Shown here: positions 31,107 to 60,380 of the stretch, piece by piece
Layout of the letters: every line of letters begins with the position of its first letter
How positions within the stretch are numbered: position 1 is the first letter of the stretch
NCBI GenBank assembly: GCA_963717435.1
Contig: OY970332.1
Span: 832,001-896,000 of the forward strand
DNA: 64,000 bases
Origin: an uncultured bacterium
GTDB taxonomy: Bacteria; Babelota; Babeliae; Babelales; Babelaceae
Direction: 5' to 3'
The notes under the pieces: model-generated
The model's input: the letters and a program-made list of their open reading frames with translations, nothing else
The model's database searches: none
Told to the model about the DNA's origin: nothing
Translations under genes and position numbers: made by a program

Positions 31107-32984
31107 CTACCAGCCGCCTCCACCGCCACCGCCTCCTCCTCCACCAGAAGATCCACCACCGCCTGATCCAGAAGAGCTGCCGGGGCTGCTTGTTGAAGAA
31201 GAAATTTGGCTTGAAAGTGAGCTTGATAAGTTGCTTGAAAAACTATCAGCTGGAAAAATTACTCCAGCAGGCAATCCTGAATACCAAACAGGATTATATT
31301 CGTGATCCTGTTTTTTTAATTGCTCAAATATTGGCGCGAATTTTTTTGCCCATTCTTTTTCTACGCCAAGAGCAATTGCATATGGTAAATATTTTTCATA
31401 AAGTTCAGGATTTTTAGTTGGGGGCGTGCCAATAACTTTAAGTCTGTCTTCTTCGGTTGTTTGCAAGAATAATTTAAAGCCCATAATCTCTTGCATGGTT
31501 TTTATGCCATCTTGCGTGTACCCGCGTAAAAGATGACCAAAAATAGAGCATAAACACATGTTTATAATACCAATTATAAATGGGATTAAGACGCCCTCAA
31601 GATTTATAAATAAAGATATTAAATAAGTAGATATAGTAATTGCCCATAGTGGCGCGGTTTTACCCGTATTATTTTCAAAGTAATCTAAGCTATAATTTTT
31701 ATATAATATTTCTTGGTAGATATTAACTGTTGTACTTAAATACTCTGATTGGGATTTTGAAATTTTTATAGAATTTGAGTTTCGGAACAATCTTCTAAAT
31801 ATTCTATAATATTCTTGAGATTTATATTTATTTTCTTCAAGATCTTTAACTTTTACTAAAGTATAGGCCCCAGAAAACCAGCCGGGTTCAAATTTTATTT
31901 TTAAATATCCAGCAACTGCAAGTTCGACTATTAAAGCAGCAAAAGATTTCGAATCGTATTTTTTTCTATAAATATATCTTACGGCTCCCGCTGATAAATT
32001 ATTTGGCGGCTGAAAAAGTGGGATAACTGTTTTATAATCTTGAGATTTTCTGAAATCTATTACCCAAATTAAGCCCAATATGAATACTAAAAACAAGCCC
32101 AGCAGCGCAATAATAATATTTAAGTTATCTACCAATAACCATATAATTTTCTGAATAAAACTTGGTTGTGTAACGTATCCCTTGGGCCATGTTGCAACTA
32201 TAGTTAGTCCCTCACCTGGATCAAGTCTTTTTGTTGTTTTAAATATTATTTTGTTGCTTAATATGTTGCTTGATTTTGTTTCCCCGCTCGTCCCGAGTGA
32301 AATTCCGGAGGAATTTAGTATCAGCTCGCCCGGCGAAGCTTTAAGCGAAGCCTGGGAGGGATCGGCGATTTTGGCCCCGTAATCTTGCCCTTTTTCTCCA
32401 AAATAGCCAGTATAAGCTTCAAATTTTATTTTTTCACTTGGGATATTATTGTCCGGCAAAATAACAGTGGCTTCTGCTTTTTCTATAGGTAATCGCCAAC
32501 CATTCCCAGTTACGTTCCAGTAAAGTTCATCAAATTTCTCAAAGTAACCAAGTTGCCTGTTAGTTCTATAATTAATTTCGTAACTATAAATACCGGGGGT
32601 TAAATATATATCTGGGTTGCCAATATAAATATATACCCCATTATTTCTTCTTTCTATCTTATATTGCTCTTTATTACCGTTTTTAAGTACAGATTTAAGT
32701 TCAAATTTTACATTATAATTATTATTAAACTTGTCTTTATATTTTGTTGGGAATTCGCGTACAATTCCACGTTTTATCTGCGCCCCCATGGCATTAACAG
32801 TGATCTTTTCCGTTACATTAAGAGAGCCATCTTTTTCTATTTTTATAAAACTCTCAAATTTAACTATTTTTTCGTTACTGTAATTTTCCCAGTAACAAAA
32901 TATATTACTTATTAAAAAAATGGGCCCTAACGTTACTAGGGCCCTTAATATCAGACTTTTTTTCTTACACGCATTTATTTTCAT
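31107..32984 (-). CDS. DUF2207 membrane protein (LemA partner) carrying an in-frame palindromic insertion
   Basis: ELYWNVTGNGW, YEKYLPYAIALGV, Gly/Ser tail ending GGGW; start chosen after GAGG RBS. Confidence 0.9.
   Translation of the reverse strand: MKINACKKKSLILRALVTLGPIFLISNIFCYWENYSNEKIVKFESFIKIEKDGSLNVTEKITVNAMGAQIKRGIVREFPTKYKDKFNNNYNVKFELKSVLKNGNKEQYKIERRNNGVYIYIGNPDIYLTPGIYSYEINYRTNRQLGYFEKFDELYWNVTGNGWRLPIEKAEATVILPDNNIPSEKIKFEAYTGYFGEKGQDYGAKIADPSQASLKASPGELILNSSGISLGTSGETKSSNILSNKIIFKTTKRLDPGEGLTIVATWPKGYVTQPSFIQKIIWLLVDNLNIIIALLGLFLVFILGLIWVIDFRKSQDYKTVIPLFQPPNNLSAGAVRYIYRKKYDSKSFAALIVELAVAGYLKIKFEPGWFSGAYTLVKVKDLEENKYKSQEYYRIFRRLFRNSNSIKISKSQSEYLSTTVNIYQEILYKNYSLDYFENNTGKTAPLWAITISTYLISLFINLEGVLIPFIIGIINMCLCSIFGHLLRGYTQDGIKTMQEIMGFKLFLQTTEEDRLKVIGTPPTKNPELYEKYLPYAIALGVEKEWAKKFAPIFEQLKKQDHEYNPVWYSGLPAGVIFPADSFSSNLSSSLSSQISSSTSSPGSSSGSGGGGSSGGGGGGGGGGGW
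32282..32363 (-). repeat. Palindromic element A with nested 33 bp element B, in-frame in DUF2207 gene
   Basis: Minus strand GATCCCTC[CCAGGCTTCGCTTAAAGCTTCGCCGGGCGAGCT]GATACTAAATTCCTCCGGAATTTCACTCGGGACGAGCGGG. Confidence 0.9.
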
Positions 32985-33013
32985 ATATGCCTCACTGTCG
33001 ATCTGTGTTCTAT

Positions 33014-33082
33014 CCCCGCCGTCTTTAATATCGCCTGCGCGCCGAAGCTTTAGCGTAGGCGTGAGGGATTGGCGGGCTGTCT
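33014..33082 (-). repeat. Degenerate element with nested B-type unit between lemA and DUF2207
   Basis: Minus strand AGACAGCCCGCCAATCCCTC[ACGCCTACGCTAAAGCTTCGGCGCGCAGGC]GATA...GGCGGGG. Confidence 0.75.
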
Positions 33083-33645
33083 TAAAACTTAACCTGTGGA
33101 TTTTCTCTTTCAATCCCATTAGAAAGTTCAAAATATTCAGCTTTTTTAAAGCCCAATCCTGAAGCTATTAAGTTCTTTGGAAATACTGTAATTCCAATAT
33201 TATAGTTTCTTGCAGCGCCATTATAATATCTTCTTGATAGCTGAATATCGTTTTCTATATTATTCAAATCTTCTTGAAGTTTCATAAAGTTTTGATTTGC
33301 TTTTAGTTCAGGGTAGTTTTCAGCGACGGCAAAAAGTGTTTTTAAAGCCGAAGTTAAACCTGTTTCAGCTATAGATTTTTGGTCTATAGTACTGGCACCC
33401 ATGGATGCGGCACGCAATTTGGCTATATTTTCAAAAATATCTTTCTCGTGGATACTATACTGTTTTACAGTTGCTACCAGGTTTGGAATCAGGTCATAAC
33501 GTCTTTTTAATTGAACATCGATACCCGACCAACCCTCATCAACCATGGCTTTTAGGTGAACCAAGCCGTTATAAGCTGAAATTGCATAAAGGGCCAAAAC
33601 GCCCAAAACTGCCAAAATCACTATCAAAGTTGTGTTTATTTCCAT
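33082..33645 (-). CDS. lemA: LemA family protein
   Basis: WSGIDVQLKRRYDLIPNLV, ENYPELKA, RRYYN, FP. Confidence 0.95.
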   Translation of the reverse strand: MEINTTLIVILAVLGVLALYAISAYNGLVHLKAMVDEGWSGIDVQLKRRYDLIPNLVATVKQYSIHEKDIFENIAKLRAASMGASTIDQKSIAETGLTSALKTLFAVAENYPELKANQNFMKLQEDLNNIENDIQLSRRYYNGAARNYNIGITVFPKNLIASGLGFKKAEYFELSNGIERENPQVKF

Positions 33646-33993
33646 TTTTACTCCTAAAAGTTATTGTTTTAAACACTTTTCTTCTATAACTATTATAACA
33701 CAGATTTATATTTCCCATAACTTGCAGTTTTTTTAGTAAAAACCCAACACTGTTTTTCAGGGTTATTACAGGAGTGTTTTTAGCTGTCGCCAAAACTTGC
33801 TGTAAAAACTCTTGAATTTAGTTGTTAATTTCAGATATGATTAAATTGTAGTAAAAATATTTGTGAATTAAAAAGCAACGGCGGCGGATTTGATTTACAG
33901 TGATTGTGGATAAATTTAATTGAAATAAAAAGTGAGTTTGAATCAAGTAAAGAATGTTTAATAATTATTAAAAAACCAATTTAAGGAGGTTTT

Positions 33994-34335
33994 ATGAAGA
34001 AGAGTTTATTATTTGCAAGTTTGGTCGCTTTGGCAGGTAGCTTAAGCGCCTACGATCTTATAATTGAAAATAAGTTACCGGCTGTTGCCTACTATTTAAT
34101 TGAATACGGTTCTGGTTCGCCAGACAAGGGATACCTTGCACCAGTTGGGCAAGAAGGCTCGAGCGACACTGTTCTTACGCATGGAAGTTGCGTAAATAAA
34201 GTCGCTGCAAAAAATAATGACACAGGTGCCTGGGCCGATGATTGGAAAGGTTTCGATCTTTGCAAGTCTACAAAGTTTTCCATTCAAAGGGCGGCTAACG
34301 GTGGAGTAGAAATTAAACGAATTTATGATTTCTAG
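33994..34335 (+). CDS. Small secreted Cys-containing beta protein
   Basis: AAGGAGG RBS, signal peptide (LSA/YD), followed by terminator. Confidence 0.85.
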   Translation: MKKSLLFASLVALAGSLSAYDLIIENKLPAVAYYLIEYGSGSPDKGYLAPVGQEGSSDTVLTHGSCVNKVAAKNNDTGAWADDWKGFDLCKSTKFSIQRAANGGVEIKRIYDF

Positions 34336-34376
34336 AAATCGGCTCCATAAGTGTTAGAGCTTAGGATTAAGAATTG

Positions 34377-34406
34377 AAAAGGGCCGTTTAATTACGGCCC
34401 TTTTTT
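34377..34406 (+). terminator. Intrinsic terminator
   Basis: AAAAGGGCCGT-ttaatt-ACGGCCCTTTTTT. Confidence 0.85.
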
Positions 34407-34434
34407 GTAATAAACCAATTAAATGGTCAGAACT

Positions 34435-34806
34435 ATGAATAAAAAAATATTATTTTTTGCTATTTGTTTAAGTCTTGCAAGAAATACTTATGGATATACG
34501 GTTACTATTGAAAATCAGTTTGATGTTACAGTAAGAGTAACAACTGAATATCAGAACCCGGAATTATGTCCGTTATTTAGTTTTGATGTCCCATCTGGTC
34601 AGATTCGTGAACAAAAATATACAGACGACTGTTGTTTGACAAAGCTTACTGTCGAGGCCAAAGACAGGACATATTATCAGTTTGGAACAGGAGCCTGCAC
34701 GAACTTTTATTATATTATTAGGCCCAAAGCTGATACTAGAGATTTCTTTATAGATCAAAATAACGGTTCTACTATCGATATGCAGGGTAGCAAATTTAGG
34801 GGTTAG
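34435..34806 (+). CDS. Small secreted Cys-containing protein, likely distant paralog of 33994..34335
   Basis: Signal peptide, Y-x-x-x-IEN mature start, similarly placed cysteines. Confidence 0.75.
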   Translation: MNKKILFFAICLSLARNTYGYTVTIENQFDVTVRVTTEYQNPELCPLFSFDVPSGQIREQKYTDDCCLTKLTVEAKDRTYYQFGTGACTNFYYIIRPKADTRDFFIDQNNGSTIDMQGSKFRG

Positions 34807-34811
34807 AGTTT

Positions 34812-37800
34812 TTATTCAAAAATATCGCCCGATATTTTTATATCAAAATATTTTGGCAGTACTATTTTTTCTATAAGCTTAGAAGAAGCTAGCATATCTT
34901 CTTTGTTTTCTGATCTTACAATAACATGGGAATTTATGTCTTTTAACGTCGACTCTAATTCGACGATTAATTTGATAAAAAGTTTTATTCCAGCAATTCT
35001 GTCGCTATCTGTTGATATAGTTTCTTTTGCTCCAGAATTATCTGTACTATTTTCAGAATCTGCGTTGTCATCTAAGATTTCTTTCACGCTGTGTTTTTGT
35101 GACAATAAATTTTTGTTCGAAGAAGCAGAAGAGTCCAGTTCTTTTTCCAGCTTTTGCCATAAGTTTTTTTCTTCAATCTTCTTCAATAATTCTGAAGTTG
35201 ACATGGCAATGTTGCCCTTGTTGGCAAGAAAAGCTTCCATTTGATGATCCGTTACTAAATCTGTAATTATATTCTGATCATCTTCAACAGGCGTGTAGGT
35301 ATACGCATAAAGCATGAAAAATGTTCCAGGGTTGGACCAATCCATACAGTGTGCGATATCTTTGTGAATCCCCCATTTTCTTTGCTTCTTTTTAGATTCA
35401 ATAATATGAAACTTCTCGATAGGCTTATATTTATCTTTGTTTTCACTTAAATCTACTATTGGCAGTCGCTTTTCAAGAGCATAAAGATAACCAGATTTGT
35501 CGCGTTTAATTATTAATGGAGGCACGCCGTACGGTATTTTTTCAGGAACCAAAAACTGCCCGTTTTCAGATTTACAATAAACAAGTTGTGAAATGATCCC
35601 GTACCATTGCGCACGAATTGGTGTAACAAAATTTTGAAACTGTTCAAAGTCTTGACAGCTTTCATGCATCACGCCAACTACTGTTGTTTTTACGCCATTA
35701 GTTAAAATAAGTTCTGAGCCACGTTTGATCTGATTTTTGTAACTTGTATCTGGAATCTCTCCGTCCATGCCGGACCATATGCTCGAATAATACTCGTGAT
35801 TAATATAATTTTGAAATAAATTTACAATTTTATTATTAAGATCTAATAATTTTTTCGAATCAAATTTTAAAAGAATATTATAAACTTTATCAAGCGCATA
35901 TTGAGAATCTCTCAACTCATGTTCTTTTGACAGCTTTTCTTGTACATGTTTTAAAATATCTTCGCCTTGCGCAGCTATAACTCTTTGCACTTCTGACTTT
36001 AAATCTTTTTCAAGCGTTTTTCCTGAAATTAAATTTAAGCTTTCGCCTGCGTGTTTTTCCAATATATTATACATAGATAATCTTAAAGCGGTTTCTATAA
36101 CAAGATTTTCAGCAAGCTTGGCTCTGCAGTCGTTTAATAGTTTATAATTTTCTGCTTCTCTGTGTACCATTATTTTGTAGAAGCTATTTTCGATATCAAA
36201 TCTGTCTTTAAACAATTTTTTCGCGTACTGCAAAATAAAGTTAACACGAATATTTTCTCTTGATGTTCTTGGGTACATACTCAAGAAGTTAACAAATACC
36301 ACTCGTTCGATACCTTGGGCCTTCATCTTGTCTATCAAAATTTGCATGAAATCTTTATAACTTAATGGAAGCGACAGGCCCTTTACGAATAACATCTGTT
36401 CAGGCACAGCGTTTTTAAGACCAGTTGAATGGGTGGTTGCTAACGGTACAAGAATTTTTAAAGTTTTATTCTCTTTTTTATTAAATATATAATGGCTATT
36501 TTCAAACTCGAATGGGACCCAGTCCTGATCAAGCTTGTTTAAATTTACTACCTGTTGCGCGAAGTGATATTCGATATTACTGTCACTATTATTAGTATTA
36601 TTACTGTTATTAGAGTAAAGCTCAAGATTTTCGCGTATAACTTGATTTTTTAGATGCTCAAAATTTTCTATAAGCTTTTCACGATTTTCAGAAACAAATT
36701 TTAAAATTTTATTAATATCATGTTCTTGAAGATCTTTTTTGGTTGATACGTCAGAGTAAACAAACCCCTCAGGTTTTATCGTAAAATGACTTATTTGGGC
36801 AGGAAGATCCACCAAAAACAATTTGTCTTTTAACTTATATACTGTCGCTTCTTGACTTGACGAGTTATCGCAACGTTCATATTTTTCAAATTGATCAGAA
36901 TATTTTTGCCAATTTTGTATATTATTTAATAAAGTACTTTTTCCGACGCCATCAACAAAACTGCCGAATATATAAGCAGTGTTTTTATCTTCTATTGGCT
37001 TTATATATTTTTCAAATTCTGTAATAAATTTTTGAGCGTTAGCAGTCGCGCCAGCCTTTTGTATAGATAGCGTCTCTATAGGGTAAGTTATATCTGGTCC
37101 GACAAATATCTTTTTGATATTACATTTGCCCTTAACCAACATGCTGGCATATTCTGTAGAGAATAAAATATCTTGTGTTGCAATATTATTCCCAAATCCA
37201 CTTTTGCATGATTTTTCAAACAAGAATTTCCAGAAATCCACTATGCTGCTCAAGCAAGCAACAGGGTCCTTGGAATATATTTTTCGTTCTATTTCGTTTC
37301 TGATTTGAATTATATAATCAAAATCTTTATCTAATGCATGCTTTTGGAAAACTACGTTGTTGTCATCAAAAAAATTAATATTTTTTGCATGGACATGTTC
37401 AAATATCGCGGGGCTGTCTGGGTGCCACTTTTTTTCTAACCAGTTTGCATCTTTTAAAACAAATCCTGTTAAGAAGCCAAACATGTTTCTTGCTGATTTT
37501 TCTGAACCAGAATTATTTTTTAGTATCGCTTCATCATGAATATCTTCACGATCCCAGCTTGAAGTATACGGCGGCATTCCGTCTTCCTGGTACCCAATAA
37601 TTAATATATCATGATCAACTTTAATCTGATTTTGTTTTATAAACTCTCTAAGTTGCAAAAAACTATTAGCCGTTTTTTTTAGAGTATATGGGTGATATTC
37701 TCGAGTGTATTTACTCTCAAGATCATACTTGTCTATAAAACTATCTATAAAATTATCAGGGTTTGCTTCTGAAAATAAAAAATTTACACAGAACAAGCTT

Positions 37801-37832: not shown

Positions 37833-37867
37833 CCATATATTTTCCGGTACTTTGGGCAGATTTTCAT

Positions 37868-38002
37868 GATCCGCTCGTCCTGAGTGTTTTTTGAGCGTAT
37901 TGCGCGAAAAAAACGTATCGAAGGATCGGATCACGGGTTCGCTGTATCCTTCGATACATTCTACTTCGCTCTCCGAGCTTCGTAGAACACTCAGGACGAG
38001 CG
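37868..38002. repeat. Inverted pair of palindromic element A
   Basis: CGCTCGTCCTGAGTG..GTATCGAAGGAT facing ATCCTTCGATAC..CACTCAGGACGAGCG; each copy has a different inner hairpin. Confidence 0.9.
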
Positions 38003-38058
38003 AGTGTAGATCAAGCTTTGCTTTGAATTTTGAAAATATTTTTAAAATAACTGAGTTT

Positions 38059-38934
38059 CTAATCACCATAATCTGCCTGCTTATTTTGTTTTTTTAGCAA
38101 ACTTACTATTTGTTGGTTTTTCTCGTATAACTCAGCATATATTGCTTCAAATTTCGTTTTGTCATAAGTCGCATTTGACCAGGTTTTTAATTTAGCAACC
38201 TGTTTTTTAAGCTCTTTATTAAACTTCACAGCCAGCTGACAATATTTCTTATAAAGCTCTGAATTATTAATATGGGCGTAAGAGTATTTGATTGCTTCTG
38301 AAAATTGGTTCACCAAGCAGTCGCAATAAAATGCATAAAAAACAAACATTGGATGATGCTCCCCTTGGGGCACATCAAGTTGTTGTGCAATATCCAAAAT
38401 GGGTATTAACCCATTCTCTGAAGCAATTTTTTTTGTAACTTGAATAAGATCTATGTCTTTATTATAAGATTTTAGATAAATATTTTTTAAAAATATTTCA
38501 TAAACTGTGCATTGCCAAAGTGACTTTGAATAAAGCTGTGTGATATCATCACAGTCTTTTTCATTAAAGTAATCAGCTCTTGTTTGCGATTGCGCAAGCA
38601 TTAAAATTGCAAGTTCTAACCCTTTAAAAAAATCTTTTAGCTGGAGATTTAAAAGCTCCTGCATAACCCACGGTGCATTGGGTTTAAACTCATCTAACTG
38701 TTTCTTGAAGCTTTCCAGCCCCAATATCTCAGTAGTATTTGTTTCAGATATTTTTTTGCTAATTAGATTTTGTATAGATTCTGTTTCTTGTTCCCGCTCG
38801 TCCCGAGTGTTCTTCGAAGCCTTGGCGAAGAAGAATGTATCGAGGGATTGCGATGTGCTCTTAGCGAGATTAGGGCTAAGTAATATAGCAACTAAAGCAA
38901 GAACCAGTAGTTCAGATTTAAGTTTTATTGCCAT
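38059..38934 (-). CDS. Secreted hypothetical protein with in-frame element A just after the signal peptide
   Basis: AAGGGGG RBS, MAIKLK + hydrophobic stretch. Confidence 0.75.
   Translation of the reverse strand: MAIKLKSELLVLALVAILLSPNLAKSTSQSLDTFFFAKASKNTRDEREQETESIQNLISKKISETNTTEILGLESFKKQLDEFKPNAPWVMQELLNLQLKDFFKGLELAILMLAQSQTRADYFNEKDCDDITQLYSKSLWQCTVYEIFLKNIYLKSYNKDIDLIQVTKKIASENGLIPILDIAQQLDVPQGEHHPMFVFYAFYCDCLVNQFSEAIKYSYAHINNSELYKKYCQLAVKFNKELKKQVAKLKTWSNATYDKTKFEAIYAELYEKNQQIVSLLKKQNKQADYGD
38793..38848 (-). repeat. Palindromic element A, in-frame
   Basis: Shares an exact 39 bp core TCGATACATTCTTCTTCGCCAAGGCTTCGAAGAACACTC with the 60312-60380 copy. Confidence 0.92.
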
Positions 38935-38956
38935 TTTAACCGCCCCCTTTTTTATT

Positions 38957-40069
38957 TTAGAACCAACTGTTATTTTCAGCCAAATTAGCCTCAAAATCCA
39001 CAAACATCTTGCTTACGTTATTCATAGCGGCAAGTCTGTTTTTTATCGCAGCAAGATTGTGCGATGCAATAAGATCTGAAATATCTGCAAGATTGTTTTT
39101 AAAGTTCTCGGCCAAACTGTCCAAGCCAGATCTTGCTGCAGCAGGCATGTCTTTGTTCTTCACTTTGGTAGCATAAAGCATGTATGCGATAACTCTATGA
39201 CCCTCTTTTAATAATTGGGCATAAGCCATATTCAAATTCTCTCTGCTTAGCTGTGCATATAGTTCGTCACCAGATTTTTCAGTGCCAACTATCGTGCATG
39301 CATTAACCATCTCTAGCGCAGATTCAAAGTTAGTATGATGGGTAATAAAATATTCGTAACTAAGAGGCATAAAATGCTTGTAAAAGCTTCTGCTTGTCCA
39401 TGCTATTGCCGCACCTAGCGCCAACTGGAACCCTATTCCTGTTCCAATTCCCCAAATTCCATGGAAAAAGCTGCTAATATACCCGCGTTCTGGTTCTATA
39501 TGAGTCTTGTTTTGCCAGTTTATCAATAACGCATTCAATTCAGATGGCGAAAGTTGTTTTAGAAAACAGATTAGAGTTCTGAGTAAATTTATATTTTTGC
39601 TTTGTTTTGGCTTTTCACGACCAATTTCATCTAGAGAATCCAAAAGTTCGCGAATTTCACTTTTTTTCTGCTCGGCATCTACATGAACTTTTCTATCAGC
39701 TTCTATCAAATTAACTAGATCTATTAATTCGTCTTTTGCAGCTTTCCGCGGCTTGCCTATCTTCGAATATAAATCTTTGCAGGTTGAGACTACATCTTTT
39801 TGGTACAAATAATATCCAGCACCTAAAGCCACTGTCGCATACCCAAGTGTTCTAAATTTACTGTTTTTTTCTTCAAGACTAATTATTGTTTTGATCTCAT
39901 GCAAAATTTGATCGCGATTAATAATCAGAGCAGATTTTTTTTCTTGCAAAGTTTGTTCTGCTATTTTTGGTTCAGCAACTTGCGTTTGAGCAATTAAGCT
40001 GTTAGCACAAAACAGAGCCAATAATATTTTGCAACTTAAGTTTTTATTTATAAGTTTTAAGCTTGTCAT
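38957..40069 (-). CDS. Hypothetical exported/membrane protein
   Basis: Signal peptide plus two internal Gly-rich hydrophobic segments. Confidence 0.75.
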   Translation of the reverse strand: MTSLKLINKNLSCKILLALFCANSLIAQTQVAEPKIAEQTLQEKKSALIINRDQILHEIKTIISLEEKNSKFRTLGYATVALGAGYYLYQKDVVSTCKDLYSKIGKPRKAAKDELIDLVNLIEADRKVHVDAEQKKSEIRELLDSLDEIGREKPKQSKNINLLRTLICFLKQLSPSELNALLINWQNKTHIEPERGYISSFFHGIWGIGTGIGFQLALGAAIAWTSRSFYKHFMPLSYEYFITHHTNFESALEMVNACTIVGTEKSGDELYAQLSRENLNMAYAQLLKEGHRVIAYMLYATKVKNKDMPAAARSGLDSLAENFKNNLADISDLIASHNLAAIKNRLAAMNNVSKMFVDFEANLAENNSWF

Positions 40070-44145: not shown

Positions 44146-44325
44146 AAGTTTAGCTTCTTTGAAAAGCGCAACTAAATTTCCCGCTTTTGGCGCTGTGCCA
44201 TGGCGTGATATTAGAAAAAAGTTGCAATAATGCTCAAAAAGCTTAAAATTATCTCAGCTTTAAAATTCTAGTTTAAAGCTTCTGTCTTTTGAAATAAAAG
44301 CATTTGAAATTCAAAAAATATTAGT

Positions 44326-48084: not shown

Positions 48085-48960
48085 GTGAGAAAATTATTAA
48101 ATAAACTGTTTATTTGTCTTGTTTTATTGTCACACGAAGTTTCTGTAATCTCTTTTTCGATTCTTAAATCTCAGGCTGAGCAGCAAGAAGATGCGAAAAA
48201 ATGGGCAGATAAGTATTTGTCGGATGCTTCTGGGAGCGACTTGCAGATGGTGGCAAATCTTTTGTATTGGTCATACAAGCGTTCGGAAATAAATTTAAGG
48301 GTTCAAAGTTTTGCTTCAGAAAATCTTGAAACTATGTTTAAGTGTTGGCAAAATATCGCAGCAACAAGATTAAATCCGTCAAAATCTTCTCCAAATAGTT
48401 TACGAGCAGGGGATATAAAAAAAAGTAACGAGCTATTTTTAGAGTCTTATGTTCAATACAAAAATATTTGTGAATCTTATGCCAGTTGCGTCGAAACTGT
48501 AGTAAAAAAATCTGTTTTTGAAAACAAACTTGTAAAAGATGGCATTGTTGAACTTCGTCACGATGCGCGGTGGGTTATGGCAAAAGCACTTTTATCAGCA
48601 GGATTTATCGTAAGAACAGTCAATTTGTTGCAGCAAACAGATAAAATAGATACCAAAATTTGTAGAACGCATAAACTTCCAAATTGGTTAATGTCTCCAT
48701 TTGATTTAAGTATCAAGACTTTTGTTCAACTTGATTCAGAATACAACAGCGCCGTTACGTCTGCCCAAGATGCGCTATTAAGAGCACAAAATGGTAGTAA
48801 CATAGTTTGGAAGTCGATAGAGACTTCAAGATCTGAATTTTATAAAGAATATTATAAAGTTGTTATAGATTTCATGAGACGCAAGAATTTTAAGCAGTCA
48901 AATTTTAATATTTTGTTTTCTTGTGAAAATTGCGCTTCTAAACTACCTGATAAATTATGA
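48085..48960 (+). CDS. Secreted helical hypothetical protein
   Basis: GAGG RBS, GTG start; ATGA overlap with next gene. Confidence 0.75.
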   Translation: MRKLLNKLFICLVLLSHEVSVISFSILKSQAEQQEDAKKWADKYLSDASGSDLQMVANLLYWSYKRSEINLRVQSFASENLETMFKCWQNIAATRLNPSKSSPNSLRAGDIKKSNELFLESYVQYKNICESYASCVETVVKKSVFENKLVKDGIVELRHDARWVMAKALLSAGFIVRTVNLLQQTDKIDTKICRTHKLPNWLMSPFDLSIKTFVQLDSEYNSAVTSAQDALLRAQNGSNIVWKSIETSRSEFYKEYYKVVIDFMRRKNFKQSNFNILFSCENCASKLPDKL

Positions 48961-50663
48961 TAAAAAAAATAATTATTATAAGAGCTATTTTCTTAACTGT
49001 TTTATTTAACACTTGCTTAATTTCCCAAGAACAAAATTTGGGTTGGGCAGAGAGACTTTTGTCCAAGCTTACTTTGAGAGAAAAAATAGGGCAGTTATTT
49101 GTTGTTGCGGCAACTTCAAGCTCTGAAATTTTGCAAGAAAAGCTTGCAACAGGCGCTTGGGTTAACCCATATAATCTTGATCAAGATTACATAAAAAATT
49201 TAATTAGCGACTATAAAATTGGCGGATTAATTTACTTATATGGCAACACTCCAGAAAAACAGCTTAAATCTATTAGAGATTATAATAGTTTAAGCGATAT
49301 ACCGTTATTAATAACTCAAGATTGTGAATGGGGAATTAATATGCGCCATAAAGAAGCAATTAACTTCCCACGCAATTTAACTTTGGGTGCGATACAAGAT
49401 AAAAATAAAATTTACGAGCTTGGGAAAGAAATAGCTCGTCAATGTAAGTTGGTTGGCGTGCACATGAATTTTAGTCCGGTAATAGATTGCAATAATAATA
49501 AAAATAACGTTGTGATACATGACAGATCTTTTGGGGACGATCCAGATTTAGTTGCGGAATATGGCACTTTAATGTCGAATGGCTTACAAGATGGAGGCGT
49601 GCTTGCTTGTGCCAAGCATTTTCCTGGGCACGGAGATACCAGCACAGATTCCCATTTAGATTTGCCTGTAATAAATCATGATTTAAATAGACTTGAAAAT
49701 TTAGAGCTTGTCCCATTTAAAAAATTAATAGATTCTGGTGTGTCTTCTATCATGCTTGCCCACATGAGTGTGCCAGAATTAGATAATAAAAATATTGTAA
49801 CTTTTTCCCATAAAATAGTTACAGAATTTTTGGAAAAAAAACTAAAATTTGCTGGGCTTAAAATCACAGACGCGCTTGGAATGGGCGCGCTGACAAATTA
49901 TTATGAGCCCGGCGAAATTGAGCTTAAAGCCTATCTTGCCGGATTTGATATTTTGCTTTGTCCGCTTGATGTCCCCAAGTCTATAGATTTAATTGAACAG
50001 GCTATTTTGTCTGGTCGGGCTAGCGAGGCTGATCTTGATAGAAGGGTGATGAAGATTTTGAAAATTAAAGAGCTTGCGATAAAACCGCTTGATCCCTCGA
50101 TACATTCTACTTCGCCAAGGCTTCGTAGAACACTCCCAGGCTTCGTGCAAGACTTCGCCGGGCGCGGCGGGACGAGCGGGGACGAAATTAGTCCAGAAAA
50201 GCTGTTACAAGAAATTAATTCTGATTATGCAAAAAATCTTAAAGCCAGTTTATATCAAGAAGCTGTAACGATATTAAAAGATACTAATAATATTTTGCCA
50301 ATTCATACAGAGCTAGAAAATTTTCCTGATCCAAAATTTTGGGACGTTCTCCATAGGGATTTAGTTGAAGAGCTGTGGGTCTATGAAGATTGCTACGTTG
50401 CCGCTATTACTAACATTAGTAAATTTGCCGACAAAAATTTTAATATTTCGGCTGAGATTATTGAAAACTTAAAAAGTCTAAAAAGTAGCTCTGATAAAAA
50501 ACTTATAGTAACACTTTACGGCACGCCCTATTGCGCCAATCTTTTTGATTTTGCAGATGTAATTATAGTTGCTTACGAAAATGATCCCGACGCCAAACTC
50601 GCTGTTGAAAAAATATTATCGGGAGAGTGCAAAGCAACGGGCAAACTGCCAGTTAAAATTTAA
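48957..50663 (+). CDS. GH3 beta-N-acetylhexosaminidase with in-frame palindromic insertion
   Basis: LTLREKIGQL, DCEWG, KHFPGHGDTSTDSH, ITDALGM, GKLPV. Confidence 0.92.
   Translation: MIKKIIIIRAIFLTVLFNTCLISQEQNLGWAERLLSKLTLREKIGQLFVVAATSSSEILQEKLATGAWVNPYNLDQDYIKNLISDYKIGGLIYLYGNTPEKQLKSIRDYNSLSDIPLLITQDCEWGINMRHKEAINFPRNLTLGAIQDKNKIYELGKEIARQCKLVGVHMNFSPVIDCNNNKNNVVIHDRSFGDDPDLVAEYGTLMSNGLQDGGVLACAKHFPGHGDTSTDSHLDLPVINHDLNRLENLELVPFKKLIDSGVSSIMLAHMSVPELDNKNIVTFSHKIVTEFLEKKLKFAGLKITDALGMGALTNYYEPGEIELKAYLAGFDILLCPLDVPKSIDLIEQAILSGRASEADLDRRVMKILKIKELAIKPLDPSIHSTSPRLRRTLPGFVQDFAGRGGTSGDEISPEKLLQEINSDYAKNLKASLYQEAVTILKDTNNILPIHTELENFPDPKFWDVLHRDLVEELWVYEDCYVAAITNISKFADKNFNISAEIIENLKSLKSSSDKKLIVTLYGTPYCANLFDFADVIIVAYENDPDAKLAVEKILSGECKATGKLPVKI
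50091..50181 (+). repeat. Palindromic element A with nested 33 bp element B, in-frame in GH3 gene
   Basis: GATCCCTCGATACATTCTACTTCGCCAAGGCTTCGTAGAACACTC[CCAGGCTTCGTGCAAGACTTCGCCGGGCGCGGC]GGGACGAGCGGG. Confidence 0.92.
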
Positions 50664-51390: not shown

Positions 51391-51446
51391 AATTTTACCT
51401 GAGTAATTATTTAATTATTTATAATATTATAATTTATATTTTTATA

Positions 51447-53346: not shown

Positions 53347-53383
53347 AATAAGTTACCCAATTATCAAAATTTTATTATTTAGA

Positions 53384-54208: not shown

Positions 54209-54373
54209 TTTTTCTCCATTTTTTAAAAAAACTTTATAAAGTAACACATTTTTGCGAGTAATATGGTAATAATATATTACACCATAATTTAAGCCTACCA
54301 AATCTGTATTCTATTTGTAAATAATATTGAAGGGTAATTTTGCCGGCGCTTTTGGGTATCGCGCCAATATGGG

Positions 54374-55543
54374 CTATATTAAATTACACGCTTGATCTGG
54401 GGGCGTTAAAATAGAATCAAGTTCTTTATCAGATAGGGCATAAAGTGGTTTATGTGATTCCATATATTCTTCTAGTGTTAAGCTCGCCTCAGCTGGGCTT
54501 AATTTTTGCTGATATCTCTTAGTCAAATTGGCACCAAGTGACATCAGGCAGTTGTAAATTGAGTGGGCATGAATAAAGCCTGTTATTGTTACAATTTTTG
54601 CAGCATCTTTATGCTCTATTATGTTTTCTAAAATATTTAACTCTACAAGTGGGTTTACGGTTAACATGATTTGTGAGACTAGAGACTCTCTTCTGTTATT
54701 TGTGTCCGCAAGATTATTTTTATCCAGCTCATAAAGCTTTTTTGAAAACTCCAGAATAGATATATTATCTACTGTTTCCAGGTTTTTTGTTTCTTCTTTA
54801 AATTGTATAAGTTTCGCTTCAAGTAAATAATTACTGAGAAGCTCTCTAAGATTTTTTTCTGATTCAGAGGATCTTTTTAGTAGAATCGCAAATTGTGCAA
54901 CTAAATTTGAGTGAAATTGTTTATCAGTGTTGCTATAAGTGGTCTCGAACTTTCCGAACCGTTCTTTAAGATAGTTTATTTCCTGAAATAGATCTTTTAG
55001 CTTTAAATTTTTAGCCACAATAGAGCTTTTTTCTGAAGCAAATCTATATTCTGGCGGGATATTATTAGGGTCAATTTTAGGGCTAAGCAAGCAATTAGCG
55101 GCTGTGCTTGCCAATCTCGGGTTTATATTCTTAATTTTGATAATATTAGAATTTTTGAATTGGTCCTGGTCACAGATATCTTTTGTTATTTCTATGTTTA
55201 AGTTCTGATTTGTACTATTACTATTATTGCTGTTTAATTTTATTGGGACCTCAACCAAAACTAGCACTTTAAAGTTTGATAGATCTGAGATGTCCATGCT
55301 TTGTTTGTATTGAGAAACTAGGCTTTCAATTTGTTTTAAATTACTAAATAATTTTTTGGCCTGTCTTTCATGATCTGGATGGTTAAGCTCGTGAAATTCA
55401 TAAAACAGGTAGGTTTTTGGTTTAATTTGAGGCAATAGTTTGAAAACATCAAGTTGAAATAAAACGCAGCAAGAGTTTGGGACCATTAAATAGGCGGGTA
55501 GTAATAGTAGCGATAAATAAAACAGAAAGCGTGCGAGGCTCAT
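54374..55543 (-). CDS. Secreted hypothetical protein, possible TraB/Tiki/EreA-ChaN-like fold
   Basis: Signal peptide; TYLFYEFH, VLVE, IVTITGFIH; fold call speculative. Confidence 0.7.
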   Translation of the reverse strand: MSLARFLFYLSLLLLPAYLMVPNSCCVLFQLDVFKLLPQIKPKTYLFYEFHELNHPDHERQAKKLFSNLKQIESLVSQYKQSMDISDLSNFKVLVLVEVPIKLNSNNSNSTNQNLNIEITKDICDQDQFKNSNIIKIKNINPRLASTAANCLLSPKIDPNNIPPEYRFASEKSSIVAKNLKLKDLFQEINYLKERFGKFETTYSNTDKQFHSNLVAQFAILLKRSSESEKNLRELLSNYLLEAKLIQFKEETKNLETVDNISILEFSKKLYELDKNNLADTNNRRESLVSQIMLTVNPLVELNILENIIEHKDAAKIVTITGFIHAHSIYNCLMSLGANLTKRYQQKLSPAEASLTLEEYMESHKPLYALSDKELDSILTPPDQACNLI

Positions 55544-55775
55544 GAATTTTGACCCAAATTTTAAAGCAAATTAAATACAATTAATATAATATTTATTAGC
55601 TTAACTGAATTTGGGCGCTAGACAAGAATTTTTAAATATTTAATTTAAATACAAAAAATCAACATTCCCCATAAACTTTAATCAATTAAGATCATAGTAA
55701 TATGAGAAATGTTGATAATTTATCTAAAAAGTAAATCTATTAAATTTACTCTAAAGTAATTTTGATCAGTTGAGA

Positions 55776-56024
55776 TTACTCAGCTTGATTTAAATTGTCA
55801 TTATTAAATCTAGCAGTTGTACCAACTGGGCAAGTATATGTATGCTCGTGCACGCAATTTTTACATGCAGGCTCATAAGCTTCTACAAGCTTAACGCATT
55901 GAGGAACTTGTGATTCTTGACAAGCTGAACATGAGCTCTTAGCTGCTTTTTCTCTATAAGCATCAACTGAACTTACAGCGAAAGCTGAAACAGCCAAAAT
56001 AGCTGATAATAGTAACTTCTTCAT
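55776..56024 (-). CDS. Small secreted cysteine-rich protein
   Basis: AAGGAG RBS, signal peptide ending VDA, six Cys including two CxxC. Confidence 0.8.
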   Translation of the reverse strand: MKKLLLSAILAVSAFAVSSVDAYREKAAKSSCSACQESQVPQCVKLVEAYEPACKNCVHEHTYTCPVGTTARFNNDNLNQAE

Positions 56025-56185
56025 AAAAACTCCTTTTTATTAATAAAACTAAAACTTAACACTTGAACCATATGCATATGTTTCAACTCTAAACTTAGCA
56101 AAGTGTAATGACAAATTGCAATAATTTACATAAAAATATTAAATAGCTGGGTTTTTTAAGAGGTGTGAAATAATTTTTTAAATAG

Positions 56186-56214
56186 TAAGGGCCAGGTTTG
56201 GAGCCTGGCCCTTA
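56186..56214. terminator. Intrinsic terminator after HAD gene
   Basis: TAAGGGCCAGG-tttggag-CCTGGCCCTTA. Confidence 0.7.
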
Positions 56215-56266
56215 AGTGTTAGTTTATTTATTAATACTTACACGCAAAACTTTAATTTTGCAGGTA

Positions 56267-57301
56267 TTAAGCAGTTTTTCTATTATCAGTTTTTATAACT
56301 ATACCCTGATTTTCAAGTTCTGCTACCAAGTTTTGATGGTTTGTTTTATCAAACAATATACCTGATATTTTCATTTTCTTAGCAGCTTCTATATTTTCAG
56401 GTTGGTCATCGACAAACTTAATTTCATTATTCAAATTATATTTATCCACCAAATTTCTATCATGAAGCTGGTTAATAACATATTCAAATATGTTTGTATG
56501 GGGCTTTATACACCCGATTTTACCTGAAATTATAATATTCTCAGGTTTAAAATGCTTAAACAACTTTTGACCATTCTTTGAGTTATAGAAAACTTCAAAC
56601 GACTCTTTATCCCAGTTTGATAAAATAACCAACTCATATAACGGGTTACCGTTTTCGTCAGTAGCCGCCTTAAGCTGCTTAATCAACTTAAGAGACTTTT
56701 TAATCGGCTTTGTAACATTAGCAAGCTTTTCAGGGTCAAACATAAGATTTAACGAGTTTTTTACAATCTTCTTCTCTGTCTTATTTTTAAAGTAACCTGT
56801 TTTATCAAGCTCTTCTATCAAAGTATCAATTTTGCTTAAAACTTCTTTACTTGAAATTTTACCGGCGAACCAATGACATACTATCCCAGGGACAATATTA
56901 TCACCTGATTTAGCCTGCAACTCACCCTCTATTTTCTCTTGGGCACCCAACTTATAAAGAACATCAAACAATGTATCTTTAAGGGTATCTTTATCTTTAT
57001 AGAACATTATGTCCAAGAAACCAATCTCTGAAGCTATCTTCATATGGTCCTGTTCCAATAATGTCTCACCCAAGTCGAATATAATAGTAGTAGTTTTAGT
57101 TAAGTCTTGAGTTTCTTGGCTATTTTTACTGTTTACTGGGTCAAATTTAGACTCAGTTAGATTTTCCTGGTTTAATTTATTAACAACGCTATTCTGGGTT
57201 TTAGGCTGCTTTAAAAGCAAATTTGACCCGAAATAACCCAATACTGTTAATAACGCTAATACTGAAGGTAATAATACTGATTTGTTTAGTAACTTCTTCA
57301 T
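56267..57301 (-). CDS. HAD-superfamily hydrolase with N-terminal membrane anchor
   Basis: IIFDLGETL, ILSN, IKP, FVDDQPENIEAA. Confidence 0.85.
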   Translation of the reverse strand: MKKLLNKSVLLPSVLALLTVLGYFGSNLLLKQPKTQNSVVNKLNQENLTESKFDPVNSKNSQETQDLTKTTTIIFDLGETLLEQDHMKIASEIGFLDIMFYKDKDTLKDTLFDVLYKLGAQEKIEGELQAKSGDNIVPGIVCHWFAGKISSKEVLSKIDTLIEELDKTGYFKNKTEKKIVKNSLNLMFDPEKLANVTKPIKKSLKLIKQLKAATDENGNPLYELVILSNWDKESFEVFYNSKNGQKLFKHFKPENIIISGKIGCIKPHTNIFEYVINQLHDRNLVDKYNLNNEIKFVDDQPENIEAAKKMKISGILFDKTNHQNLVAELENQGIVIKTDNRKTA

Positions 57302-57587
57302 AAACACTCCATTTCTTAAAGGTTATTGAAAGTTAACCTGTTTTCTCTGTTTATAGCTAATTTATACCTGTTTTACTCTGTTGCTCTTTGGGTAAAGTAG
57401 ATATAAATATGTATATACTATATAATTTACAGATATGCATAAAAATGGCAAAAGCCCCCCCCTCTGCCAGGTTGGCACAGGTTATCAAGCCTACTATTTT
57501 TTGGATGGGAGAACGGGTGAATTTACAGGTTTGCGAACCTGTAAAGCAAAATAGTTAAAGTTTTAGATTAAGTTTAATTAAGAATAT

Positions 57588-57989
57588 ATGAACAAGCCTG
57601 AAAATAACCAGCTTTACCAAGCTGAGCTTATGGACCACTATAAAAATCCGCGAAATAGGGGAAAATTAGATACCCCCAGCTTCGAGTCTGGCGTTTTTAA
57701 CCCTTCTTGTGGGGACAGGGTAGGCTTTGATGGTATAATCAAAGACAATAAACTTGTCGAAATAGCTTTTCAGGGAGAAGGCTGCGTAATTAGTCAGGCA
57801 ACAGCCTCTATGCTAACTGAATATGTAAAAAACAGAGATATATCAGGTATAGAAAAACTCAATTCCCAGGATATACTAAGTCTTGTTAAAATAGATCTAG
57901 GTCCTGCCAGGCTGCGTTGCGCCCTAATATCTTTGGAAGCTTTGCAGCATGGTATAAAGATCTGGCATCAAAAACAAGAAAAAAAATAG
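57588..57989 (+). CDS. IscU/SufU-type Fe-S scaffold protein
   Basis: DHYKNPRNRG, NPSCGD, GCVISQATAS, RLRCA. Confidence 0.92.
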   Translation: MNKPENNQLYQAELMDHYKNPRNRGKLDTPSFESGVFNPSCGDRVGFDGIIKDNKLVEIAFQGEGCVISQATASMLTEYVKNRDISGIEKLNSQDILSLVKIDLGPARLRCALISLEALQHGIKIWHQKQEKK

Positions 57990-58027
57990 TTAAATAACTA
58001 ATCGAAAAATATTTTGGGGTATTAGAA

Positions 58028-59122
58028 ATGCTTAAAAAAGACAAAGTATTAAAAGATATAAGTAGTTTGGCCCCTAATATATTTTCAGCCAAATCTAAAG
58101 AGCTAGAGATCTTAGCGAGTTTGTGGCAAGAAATAGCTTACGAACTTGGGTTAGGTGTCCAGGTTCCCGTCCCATCAAATAATATTCAAAGCTATTTTGT
58201 TTGTTCTATCGACGGCTCACAAATCTATCCCGATAGGCACCAGGGGATCCCATGTTATTTATTAAACACTGGCATAGTCCAGTTTTTTTATGGAAAAAAC
58301 AACGCTGTGCCCGACCCATCGATACTAAATTCCTCCGGAATTTCACTCGGGGCGAGCGGGTCTAGCTGGGTAAAACTAGATTCTGAGCCCCAGGTTTATT
58401 TTGCTGATAATATAGAGTCGCTTGATGCAGATATGATAAATTGCAAAAGAAGTGAGCTGGAGCTGAAAAAGGGGCTAGATATAATGGCTGATTTGGGGGG
58501 CACCCCTGCTCTGTTTCTCATAGATGGCTCGATAATATTCTGGCACCTGCAGTCCAAGCCAGAAGACGTAAAGACCCAGTTCTTGGGCAGTTATTTGGGA
58601 ATTTTAGATAAATTTTACAGAAATAATACGCTTTTTGCTGGTTATATTAGCCTGCCTAAAAGCAAAGAACTTGTGAGTATGGCAAGAGTTGCGCTAAAAA
58701 AACGGGGCCTAGAACAAAATTTAGATTACATAGTGGACTCTGATATTATAAGCATGTTCTTAAAAACCAATTCTCGAACAGAGTTGTTTTTTAGTGACTC
58801 ACCAGTCTGTAAATATTATCCAGTTTATTTAAAGCCCAATTTTTTTTACATAGATTTGGGACAAGAGATCGCCCGCATAGAAGTCCCCAATTATATTGCT
58901 CAGGATCAAGATAAGCTTAAAAAAGTGATAGATATAATCACTGACCAGGTTGCTAAAGGCAAGGGATTCCCAGTTTGCCTATCTGAGGCGCATGAACAGG
59001 CGGTTGTGAAATCCGCCGATCGAGAATTCTTTTATAATATGCTGAGCAGAATTACGCAGGAACATGGGCAAGTTTATACAGTTTCTCAAAAAAGCTTAAA
59101 AAAGAGATTTGTTAATATTTAA
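58028..59122 (+). CDS. nurA: NurA family nuclease with in-frame palindromic insertion
   Basis: IDGSQ, LIDGSI, GYISLPKS, RIEVP, GFPVCLSEAHEQAVV. Confidence 0.88.
   Translation: MLKKDKVLKDISSLAPNIFSAKSKELEILASLWQEIAYELGLGVQVPVPSNNIQSYFVCSIDGSQIYPDRHQGIPCYLLNTGIVQFFYGKNNAVPDPSILNSSGISLGASGSSWVKLDSEPQVYFADNIESLDADMINCKRSELELKKGLDIMADLGGTPALFLIDGSIIFWHLQSKPEDVKTQFLGSYLGILDKFYRNNTLFAGYISLPKSKELVSMARVALKKRGLEQNLDYIVDSDIISMFLKTNSRTELFFSDSPVCKYYPVYLKPNFFYIDLGQEIARIEVPNYIAQDQDKLKKVIDIITDQVAKGKGFPVCLSEAHEQAVVKSADREFFYNMLSRITQEHGQVYTVSQKSLKKRFVNI
58310..58360 (+). repeat. Palindromic element A (51 bp), in-frame in nurA
   Basis: CCCGACCCATCGATACTAAATTCCTCCGGAATTTCACTCGGGGCGAGCGGG; 31 bp identical to the DUF2207 copy. 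Confidence 0.92.
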
Positions 59123-59263
59123 GTTGGCCCGCTCGTAATTTAACCAGTAAATGTCGAGGCTTTTTACATTTAGGCCATTAATTGTTAAAATTAGCAACAA
59201 TAGGTTAAAAATAGGGTTAGATCCCTGTATTCAATAATAAAAAACAATTTTGAGGAAAACAAA

Positions 59264-60196
59264 ATGTTCAAAACTTTTAAAGCCATTTTGGTAAGCTTAT
59301 TCTTAACTGCTTTGCCCATATCTGCCAATATTTCAATTTCAGGCGGTTCGTCTATGGAAGTAGGTTATTACCAACTTGATGGAACCGTAAAATTGGGTGA
59401 TTTTTGTCGTTTAAAAGCAAAAAAGCTTGCAGGTAAGGGGCTAATTGAAATTGGAAAAAATGTAGACTTTGTTTGCGATGATTTTCAATTTGATGGCACC
59501 ATTAGTTGTGATCACGAGTGTATAATACGAACAAAAAAAGCATTTGATTATTCTAGATTTACAAGAAAAGGCACAGGTGCGTTTACTGTTATCATAACCC
59601 CATACGAATTTGAATCTTTTACAGAGTCTGAGCTATGTGATTCTGCAAAAAGAGTTCTTTTACATGACATTTTTGGAAGCTCTGACGAAATTATAGCTAA
59701 ACAAATTCAAAGTGTAAGGGTATATGCAGCCTTAAATAGTATTAATGAAAATAATGTTTTGGCTTCTGTATTGTCCTATATTGATGAACAAATAGATTTT
59801 CATAAAAAATATGAAACTGAAAATAAAGCTCATATTAACGAAAAATATAAATTTTCTGATATAAAGGAATCTTTAGCCATATGTAGCGCATTTTCATTAT
59901 CAAGTTTAGGGCTTTCTTATCTTGTGTATAAATATAGATCCACTATTATGAACAAATTCTCTTCGATAGAGGGTCGACATATCTTCGGCGGTGTGGCTTT
60001 CGGATTGCTTTTATCAGCAATAGGGGCTTTGGGCGCTTCCGCTGAACATTCACTTGTTGGCCAAGAAACAAAAGCTTCGATTTTATATGCTATGAATCAA
60101 AAAAAACTTGATAAGCTTGTCGAACTTAAAAATAAAATTAATAAGTTTTTTGCTGTTCCATTTATTTTGGAAAAAGAGCAAGTGGTTAAATTATAA
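59264..60196 (+). CDS. Secreted protein sharing N-terminal domain and TM hairpin with 12942..14420
   Basis: Signal peptide; FQFDGTISCDHECIIRT..FTRKGTGAF; two C-terminal hydrophobic helices. Confidence 0.8.
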   Translation: MFKTFKAILVSLFLTALPISANISISGGSSMEVGYYQLDGTVKLGDFCRLKAKKLAGKGLIEIGKNVDFVCDDFQFDGTISCDHECIIRTKKAFDYSRFTRKGTGAFTVIITPYEFESFTESELCDSAKRVLLHDIFGSSDEIIAKQIQSVRVYAALNSINENNVLASVLSYIDEQIDFHKKYETENKAHINEKYKFSDIKESLAICSAFSLSSLGLSYLVYKYRSTIMNKFSSIEGRHIFGGVAFGLLLSAIGALGASAEHSLVGQETKASILYAMNQKKLDKLVELKNKINKFFAVPFILEKEQVVKL

Positions 60197-60243
60197 TAAT
60201 ATCTTCTAAAAACAGCTTAATTTTTTAAAACTTTAGATAAGAA

Positions 60244-60274
60244 AAAATAGCCCGGTTTTTAATCGGGCTATTTT
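60244..60274. terminator. Bidirectional intrinsic terminator
   Basis: AAAATAGCCCG-gtttttaat-CGGGCTATTTT between convergent genes. Confidence 0.8.
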
Positions 60275-60311
60275 AATGTCAAAAATATTTTAATGTAACC
60301 AACTTGCTTAA

Positions 60312-60380
60312 CACACCCGACCCTTCGATACATTCTTCTTCGCCAAGGCTTCGAAGAACACTCAGGGCGAGCGGGGTGTG
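60312..60380 (+). repeat. Palindromic element A, intergenic
   Basis: CACACCCGACCCTTCGATAC...CACTCAGGGCGAGCGGGGTGTG. Confidence 0.92.

Follow-up and report, generated by a model that had tools for sequence, protein, structure and literature searches.

Rickettsia palindromic elements (RPEs) are repeats of about 100-150 bp that Ogata and colleagues reportedly described in 2000 as inserted in frame in unrelated genes, and we know of no engine for Rickettsia-type palindromic elements that enter proteins. Here we describe a GC-rich palindromic repeat unit of about 60 nucleotides (nt) in a 64,000-nt stretch of DNA, called the window below (contig OY970332.1 of assembly GCA_963717435.1, positions 832,001 to 896,000, forward strand), from an uncultured bacterium of the Babelaceae. 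The source genome is a single contig of 1,198,203 bp with 34.6% GC. Copies of the unit lie in frame in unrelated genes of the window, and elsewhere in the genome two copies bracket a gene for a small GIY-YIG nuclease.

The closest described nuclease system is Ssn. In the Ssn paper (Chenal et al. 2025, Nat Commun, PMC11893778), SsnA is a single-domain GIY-YIG protein of 94 amino acids (aa). It binds and cleaves an oriented hairpin repeat, NTS, solely when this is single-stranded, and changing Y6, Y17 and E64 inactivates it. The ssnA gene typically lies between such repeats (PMC11893778).

Our preferred reading is that a small, single-domain nuclease of the Ssn type has the unit found here as its cognate hairpin, and that the unit is copied to new sites, with copies surviving in genes; we give this reading a probability of roughly 0.6. 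We aligned 107 simple copies from the whole genome into a covariance model, R1, which had 123 matches genome-wide at E <= 0.01. The copy number in the genome is about 125, and 126 units were used for sorting copies into genes and spacers. A search of the genome for GIY-YIG domains gave five matches, one of which is a 94-aa single-domain gene outside the window (genome positions 1066108-1066389). Its product has a Pfam GIY-YIG domain at residues 4-75 and no other domain, its catalytic residues are intact, and its best matches in the PDB are the UPF0213 proteins BH0048 and EF2693. A unit on the minus strand lies 24 nt upstream of this gene and a unit on the plus strand 13 nt downstream, with the TCGATAC sides of both facing the gene. 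The sequence-only reading had taken the element to be non-autonomous and had proposed a search for a RAYT/Y1 (repetitive extragenic palindrome [REP]-associated tyrosine transposase) or GIY-YIG gene flanked by the repeats. The repeat is indeed palindromic and present in many copies, but the unit/GIY-YIG/unit cassette just described looks autonomous. A search for the Y1 (RAYT) transposase family PF01797 was negative in this genome and positive in 6 of 14 control genomes.

The arrangement recurs beyond the source genome, in many genera and in two other phyla. At 18 of 30 homologous loci R1 finds a unit within about 130 bp of the nuclease gene; 12 loci have units on both sides, always in the order unit (-), gene, unit (+). 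A short variant of the repeat, with TCGACAAGCTC as its loop and no inner hairpin, shares with the long one the 4-bp stem, the TCGA...CTC loop and the GARCGG tail; when it was counted too, by eye and with regular expressions, 28 of the 30 loci had the long or the short variant next to the gene. The two variants cluster on a tree of 37 nuclease proteins, where the long variant requires 6 changes compared with 12.2 in shuffles (0 of 500 shuffles were as low). Residues Y7, Y17, G19, R27, H31 and E64 are invariant in 31 nuclease homologues. We sampled 151 genomes of the order Babeliales from 91 genera and found close nuclease homologues in 40 of them, called at >=50% identity and a best E <= 1e-18, a cut-off set at the score gap after the bimodal distribution had been seen. 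Both nuclease and repeat occurred in 32 genomes, the nuclease only in 8, the repeat only in 31 and neither in 80; these counts treat related genomes as separate, and kin are not independent.

Two side observations concern other GIY-YIG loci. In another genus, locus L073 (G043:C2:112799-115303) has six units within about 1.2 kb around a GIY-YIG gene, forming a cluster like a bacterial interspersed mosaic element (BIME). The source genome has a second small GIY-YIG subfamily whose proteins start with MFY.Y.L, with genes at 413544-413759 and 1023036-1023248 and a TAG-stop pseudogene by a tRNA at 200267-200425 (loci L202, L201 and L204). About 30-50 nt upstream of the genes at 413544 and 200267 stands a simple, perfect hairpin about 30 nt long with CAGGC or CGGGC behind it, which is loosely NTS-like and unlike the unit studied here; the gene at 1023036 has GC-rich repeats of another family, described below, upstream instead. 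The source genome may thus hold two separate nuclease/hairpin pairs.

The repeat family is not special to this organism. The R1 unit is present in 63 of the 151 genomes and 44 of the 91 genera of the order, and three genomes examined fully contained 82, 44 and 93 units at E <= 1e-5. A scan for the exact pattern in one genome per prokaryotic species gave at least 117 loci. Among the matches listed, most were in records titled Babeliales, Dependentiae or TM6, and others belonged to Allosphingosinicella, Sphingopyxis, Sphingomicrobium, Solimonas, Dehalococcoidia, Myxococcota and Armatimonadia, with paired stems in all; viral contigs had no exact-pattern match. R1 found 130 copies in a Myxococcota genome and 49 in a Dehalococcoidia genome. 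The nuclease homologue of Solimonas is 53% identical to that of the source and has long units directly upstream, with a second copy flanked by the short variant, and that of Allosphingosinicella is 57% identical, with the short variant flanking. Our literature search found no paper with the repeat sequence and none on palindromic repeats in Dependentiae, and the main texts of the Babela and Chromulinavorax genome papers do not mention palindromic, MITE (miniature inverted-repeat transposable element) or hairpin repeats. For flanked palindromic repeats together with GIY-YIG proteins, only the Ssn paper was relevant. Motif strings and the names Dependentiae and Babel had no relevant match in 13 of the 14 supplement files of that paper (PMC11893778); Supplementary Data 4, which may list such genomes, lay outside the search.

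The unit runs from about 11 nt before TCGATAC through 2 nt after CGAGCG, and outside these limits the flanks drop to AT-rich background. Its outer stem, CCGC/GCGG, is weak (62% paired). Inside lies P2, a 4-bp stem that switches as a whole (TCCC/GGGA, CCCT/AGGG, CCCC/GGGG, TGGT/ACCA) and is 93.8% paired in the 107 copies; it is followed by an asymmetric, near-invariant internal loop, with TCGATAC opposite CACTC, by P3, a variable hairpin that is 95.3% paired in the same copies, and by a conserved bulge and tail, CGAGCGG. Some copies carry an extra GC-rich module on one side of the loop. Double compensatory changes were seen in 250 cells compared with 62.6 in shuffles, a signal that was lost when partner columns were slid, and there is one G-U pair among all P2 and P3 cells. 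The sequence-only reading had noted that the stem changes while keeping its pairing and had seen in this a selection on structure. The compensatory pairing is real, but because the covariation is strictly Watson-Crick and there is no strand bias, it points to a hairpin at the DNA level and not necessarily to selection on RNA. A hairpin acting in DNA is also supported by the occurrence of units in both orientations and by a neighbouring gene resembling single-stranded DNA (ssDNA) nucleases. Self-correction of palindromes could likewise maintain the pairing of the arms.

R1, run on the window without filters, found all seven copies that had been claimed from the letters alone, each at E <= 5e-5. 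Independently of the model, a motif scan gave 8 window matches to the left-end motif with 1.55 expected and 6 to the right-end motif with 0.01 expected. The copies are as follows.

32279..32365, minus strand: unit in frame in the DUF2207 gene, with an additional GC-rich module separating CCCTC from GATAC (R1 match 32279-32337, E 5e-5).
33011..33076, minus strand: remnant consisting of the left end CCGCCAATCCCTC and an inserted module (R1 10.7 bits, E 1.5, not significant).
37866..37935, minus strand: unit, left half of a head-to-head doublet (R1 57.4 bits).
37937..38008, plus strand: unit, right half of this doublet, which has (-,+) geometry and a 13-bp gap (R1 72.3 bits).
38789..38857, minus strand: unit in frame in a 314-aa open reading frame (ORF; 38059-39003, minus strand), by R1 (83.1 bits) and translation.
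50085..50181, plus strand: unit in frame in the GH3 gene (48957-50663, plus strand; partial R1 match 50097-50135).
58305..58364, plus strand: in-frame unit with a short hairpin in the NurA gene (58028-59122, plus strand), by R1 (48.9 bits) and translation.
60311..60379, plus strand: intergenic unit with an extended outer stem (R1 82.6 bits).

The additional degenerate copy that had been placed at 33014 is borne out as a left-end remnant and not as a significant match to the model; it has no CACTC or CGAGCGG end and lies upstream of the likely start of DUF2207. The doublet at 37866 and 37937 falls within the longest ORF of a 1085-aa gene, upstream of a signal-peptide-like start (MINKKSS...), and is probably intergenic because the likely true start of that gene is downstream. 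The last unit stands between convergent genes, an ORF at 59264-60196 on the plus strand and dnaJ at 60416-61546 on the minus strand (Pfam DnaJ).

As the sequence-only reading had it, four copies lie in sense orientation within the DUF2207, 314-aa, GH3 and NurA ORFs, and translation shows that all are read through, with the peptides ILNSSGISLG[TA]SG and DPS... present as claimed. The hosts are annotated as a DUF2207 membrane protein, a GH3 hydrolase and NurA, and the 314-aa protein is unannotated. The insert in DUF2207 encodes DPSQASLKASPGELILNSSGISLGTSG. In the 314-aa protein the insert comes directly after a signal-peptide-like segment and encodes QSLDTFFFAKASKNTRDER. The GH3 unit is split by an extra module of about 35 nt between CACTC and GGGACGAGCGG, hence its partial R1 match; its insert encodes DPSIHSTSPRLRRTLPGFVQDFAGRGGTSG and sits in the linker after the N-terminal domain (Pfam GH3 N domain, residues 39-369). 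The insert in NurA encodes DPSILNSSGISLGASG. The extra GC-rich module on one side of the loop is found in both the DUF2207 and the GH3 copies.

For three hosts we compared orthologues. NurA lacks about 20 aa exactly at the unit in 11 of 11 orthologues, GH3 lacks the segment in 11 of 11 orthologous ORFs (3 of them truncated), and DUF2207 lacks about 34 aa at the unit in 11 of 11 aligned orthologues; a genome search with DUF2207 gave 12 matches, all of them split at the position of the unit. The tested host ORFs are full length relative to these orthologues, with Pfam domains intact on both sides. Empty sites thus exist for each of the three hosts tested, and the core of the earlier interpretation, an RPE-like repeat that is inserted in frame into unrelated intact genes and adds peptides to their products, stands. 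The nearest relatives compared share about 50% protein identity and belong to other genera. Among the sequencing runs listed, none of which is of RNA, two soil metagenomes contain 7% of the sampled words, in short fragments only, none of which spans an insert.

The hosts and the modules gave some observations of their own. A LemA gene (33082-33645) lies directly upstream of the DUF2207 gene (31107-33131), the usual LemA-DUF2207 pair, and a long Ser/Gly run forms the C-terminal end of the DUF2207 protein. GC-rich modules of a second repeat family, with a core like CGCCAAGGCTWCG ... GGACRAG, occur both free-standing and inserted in units. Examples are at genome positions 6829, 639430-639480, 1046302 and 1123869; in the window such modules lie at about 33040-33061 and within two units (32300-32340 and 50136-50168). 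In one frame they encode YGGQA-like peptides.

Genome-wide, 29 of the 126 units are deep intragenic, 10 are ambiguous and 87 are intergenic, as judged by an ORF-based proxy in which a copy counts as deep intragenic if its ORF has 150 aa or more and if it lies no less than 150 nt beyond the earliest possible start and no less than 60 nt ahead of the stop. The deep intragenic share is 23% of copies, or 31% with the ambiguous ones counted. Because 66% of the genome is deep intragenic space, genes are about threefold under-populated by units, yet far from empty. All three frames are used, and the 29 deep copies comprise 10 in sense and 19 in antisense to the gene. The claim that all copies share the orientation of the mRNA does not extend to the genome; it was a small-sample effect, based on only four window copies. 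In six other genomes of the order, one of the 66 best-scoring units examined was deep intragenic (0 of 36 and 1 of 30), compared with 6 of the top 30 matches in the source genome; the samples are small and biased to well-preserved copies. Heavy colonisation of genes looks like a trait of the source lineage rather than of the repeat family.

The geometry of the cassette is favoured among neighbouring units: adjacent unit pairs in the genome comprise 15 head-to-head, 5 tail-to-tail and 3 tandem pairs. Two families of doublets without a gene share their spacers, as do REPINs (REP doublets forming hairpins), and a few units are nested in the hairpin of another unit, giving composites of 105-130 bp that are repeated 5-7 times. 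The gene-less doublets and the nested composites have multiplied as blocks. No larger repeats were found around the composites, only the 105-130 bp blocks themselves, and the doublet spacers had no significant similarity to the interior of the cassette.

If the unit is the cognate hairpin of the nuclease, the enzyme would bind the folded single-stranded form, reading the 4-bp stem, the TCGA...CTC loop and the GARCGG tail, and would nick near it. Repair or template switching could then copy units and doublets to new sites without target duplication. Because the unit is GC-rich in a genome of 35% GC it would rarely carry stop codons, and therefore copies that keep the frame in tolerant loops or linkers may survive as 17-35 extra residues. 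A bolder version of this idea, which we hold only tentatively and think rather doubtful as a whole, is that an undescribed Ssn-like clade spanning phyla uses a composite ssDNA signal (stem, hairpin-tolerant loop and 3' tail) and actively copies this signal, which would make it a standing source of peptide insertions in at least one Babeliales lineage.

Several results weigh against our preferred reading. The nuclease and the unit are connected by position and co-occurrence alone. A close nuclease homologue was not found in 31 of the 63 repeat-bearing genomes, including one assembled as a single contig that has at least 29 units, and several genomes with many long units have the short variant flanking the nuclease copy examined. 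The SRM pattern published in the methods of the Ssn paper (PMC11893778) has one match in the genome, which lies outside all 126 units. The folding energies of nine units as ssDNA are not clearly more stable than those of shuffles (z -3.2 to +0.4), hence the structure of the unit rests on covariation and not on energy. With fixed boundaries, the lengths of intragenic units fall as 5, 8 and 12 into the three classes modulo 3, without enrichment for multiples of three, like those of intergenic units. No target-site duplication or target motif was found at units, and the longest direct repeat in the flanks averages 3.93 compared with 3.58 in shuffles (shuffle maximum 3.96). With neither an excess of multiples of three nor a target duplication, the inserted segment is not precisely defined. 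Finally, the empty sites are known at the protein level from orthologues of other genera and not as DNA-level alleles.

That last point is what favours the idea that the intragenic copies are ancestral segments, or that the host genes are dead, since empty alleles come from the proteins of distant relatives rather than from the DNA of close ones. This idea is largely refuted by the 11 of 11 orthologues without the segment for each of three hosts, by host ORFs that are full length with intact domains on both sides, and by the same DNA unit recurring in unrelated genes, in three frames and both orientations. An explanation closer to ours is a domesticated host system, in which the nuclease cuts repeat-bearing ssDNA and modulates recombination or incoming DNA, with the intragenic copies as by-products; it overlaps our preferred reading and differs mainly in who benefits. 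Domestication of NTS and SsnA in Neisseria is raised in the discussion of the Ssn paper (PMC11893778), and here the repeat core is conserved across the order and phyla, the catalytic residues of the nuclease are conserved, and intragenic and intergenic copies are equally intact, with 92.6% and 94% of stem pairs and 98.3% and 98.5% core identity, respectively. We nevertheless regard such a system as unlikely. The repeat has a patchy distribution in the order, the branching of the nuclease tree is not that of the host families, several genomes carry nuclease pseudogenes with stop codons, and many repeat-bearing genomes have no nuclease; because of these features the pattern is more like that of a selfish element that comes and goes.

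A structured RNA motif, such as a processing site, a stabiliser or a terminator-like element selected as RNA, would fit the conserved unpaired nucleotides between the covarying stems and the enrichment of intergenic copies between convergent genes (32 of 87, though such spacers make up 15.5% of spacer bases). We consider it quite improbable given the near absence of G-U pairs and the lack of bias towards either transcription orientation, both in co-directional spacers (21 and 20 copies) and in the ORFs mentioned above (10:19). No T-run was found downstream of the unit, and Rfam gave no match, with only tRNAs in the window at the gathering threshold and only a spurious microRNA-hairpin match for twenty unit-bearing loci at E <= 1. 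Movement as a classical MITE by a DDE transposase or as a REP by a RAYT is very improbable. The genome does hold three copies of an IS481-like element with an rve/HTH_32 transposase, the left inverted repeat of which contains GGTTCAATACAT, one base off the GGTTCGATACAT of some units, and the head-to-head doublets resemble REPINs. The termini of this element otherwise differ from the unit ends, however, target duplications were not found at units, PF01797 is absent while controls were positive, and the unit recurs beside GIY-YIG genes and not beside transposases.

The IS481-like element was tried as the mobiliser of the unit and rejected because its termini do not match the unit ends; the near-identity in its left inverted repeat is probably due to chance. 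It is the only multi-copy insertion sequence element in the genome, with copies of about 1.13 kb that are 93-100% identical (349438-350590, 618249-619372 and 638295-639418). Two further observations concern other loci. Four or five diverged paralogues with 72-82% DNA identity form a tandem array in the genome (1056976-1063230), and a further copy lies at 435265-436677. At window positions 44147-44325, a metagenome contig from another sample joins tRNA-His to tRNA-Pro without the 177-bp spacer; because of several mismatches, this contig is probably from a relative with a shorter spacer.

The Ssn nucleases were described only recently, and the locus reported here joins nucleases of the Ssn type with coding palindromes. 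Should the composite-signal version be true, coding palindromes of the RPE type would gain a concrete enzymatic driver. The unit is a new and easily synthesised candidate for a recognition motif, with a quarter of its copies in genes, and makes it possible to test both the recognition of a bipartite hairpin by an Ssn-type enzyme and the generation of protein insertions by such systems. The repeat family also matters for annotation, as gene callers will translate its copies into spurious or chimeric peptides in many metagenome-assembled genomes.

Among known systems, yeast mitochondrial DNA, which is very AT-rich, has GC clusters, small GC-rich palindromic elements that can occupy an in-frame position within coding sequence. 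The unit resembles them in these respects; the clusters are hosted by an organelle, are unrelated in sequence and, to our knowledge, have no bracketed nuclease gene. Like REPs and REPINs, the unit is a short imperfect palindrome that is mostly intergenic and enriched at the 3' ends of genes, its head-to-head doublets multiply as units, and an enzyme gene is flanked by its own repeats. Unlike in REP/RAYT systems, this enzyme is a GIY-YIG protein and the unit has no GTAG-type head. With RPEs it shares the palindromic repeat, the reduced and AT-rich genome of an intracellular bacterium, the in-frame position in unrelated genes and the added peptides. It differs from these longer elements in its length of about 60 nt, its high GC content, its use of both orientations and three frames, and its link to a nuclease cassette. 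Ssn repeats and RPEs may be connected, because the Ssn paper lists Rickettsia among the SRM-rich genera (PMC11893778).

The closest likeness is to Ssn itself, as described in that paper (PMC11893778). Both have a single-domain GIY-YIG protein of about 94 aa whose gene stands between inverted copies of a directional hairpin repeat, the direction being given in both by conserved asymmetric flanks, and both occur with tens to hundreds of repeats per genome in several phyla, enriched in symbionts. The Dehalococcoidia genome mentioned above also encodes a 93-aa GIY-YIG protein whose gene is flanked by canonical NTS repeats, and the source nuclease is 36% identical to it over the full length (E 4e-15). 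On the tree of 37 proteins, however, nucleases of the source type and proteins of the NTS type form separate, fully supported clades. Unlike NTS, the unit has a 4-bp stem and a large TCGA...CTC loop, interrupted in Babeliales by a variable hairpin, as well as a GARCGG tail, and 23% of its copies in the source genome lie deep in genes, whereas 2% of NTS copies in N. meningitidis are inside genes (PMC11893778). We conclude from these comparisons that the family represents a putative new repeat type, with a nuclease clade of its own, among the nuclease-bracketed hairpin repeats of the Ssn kind.

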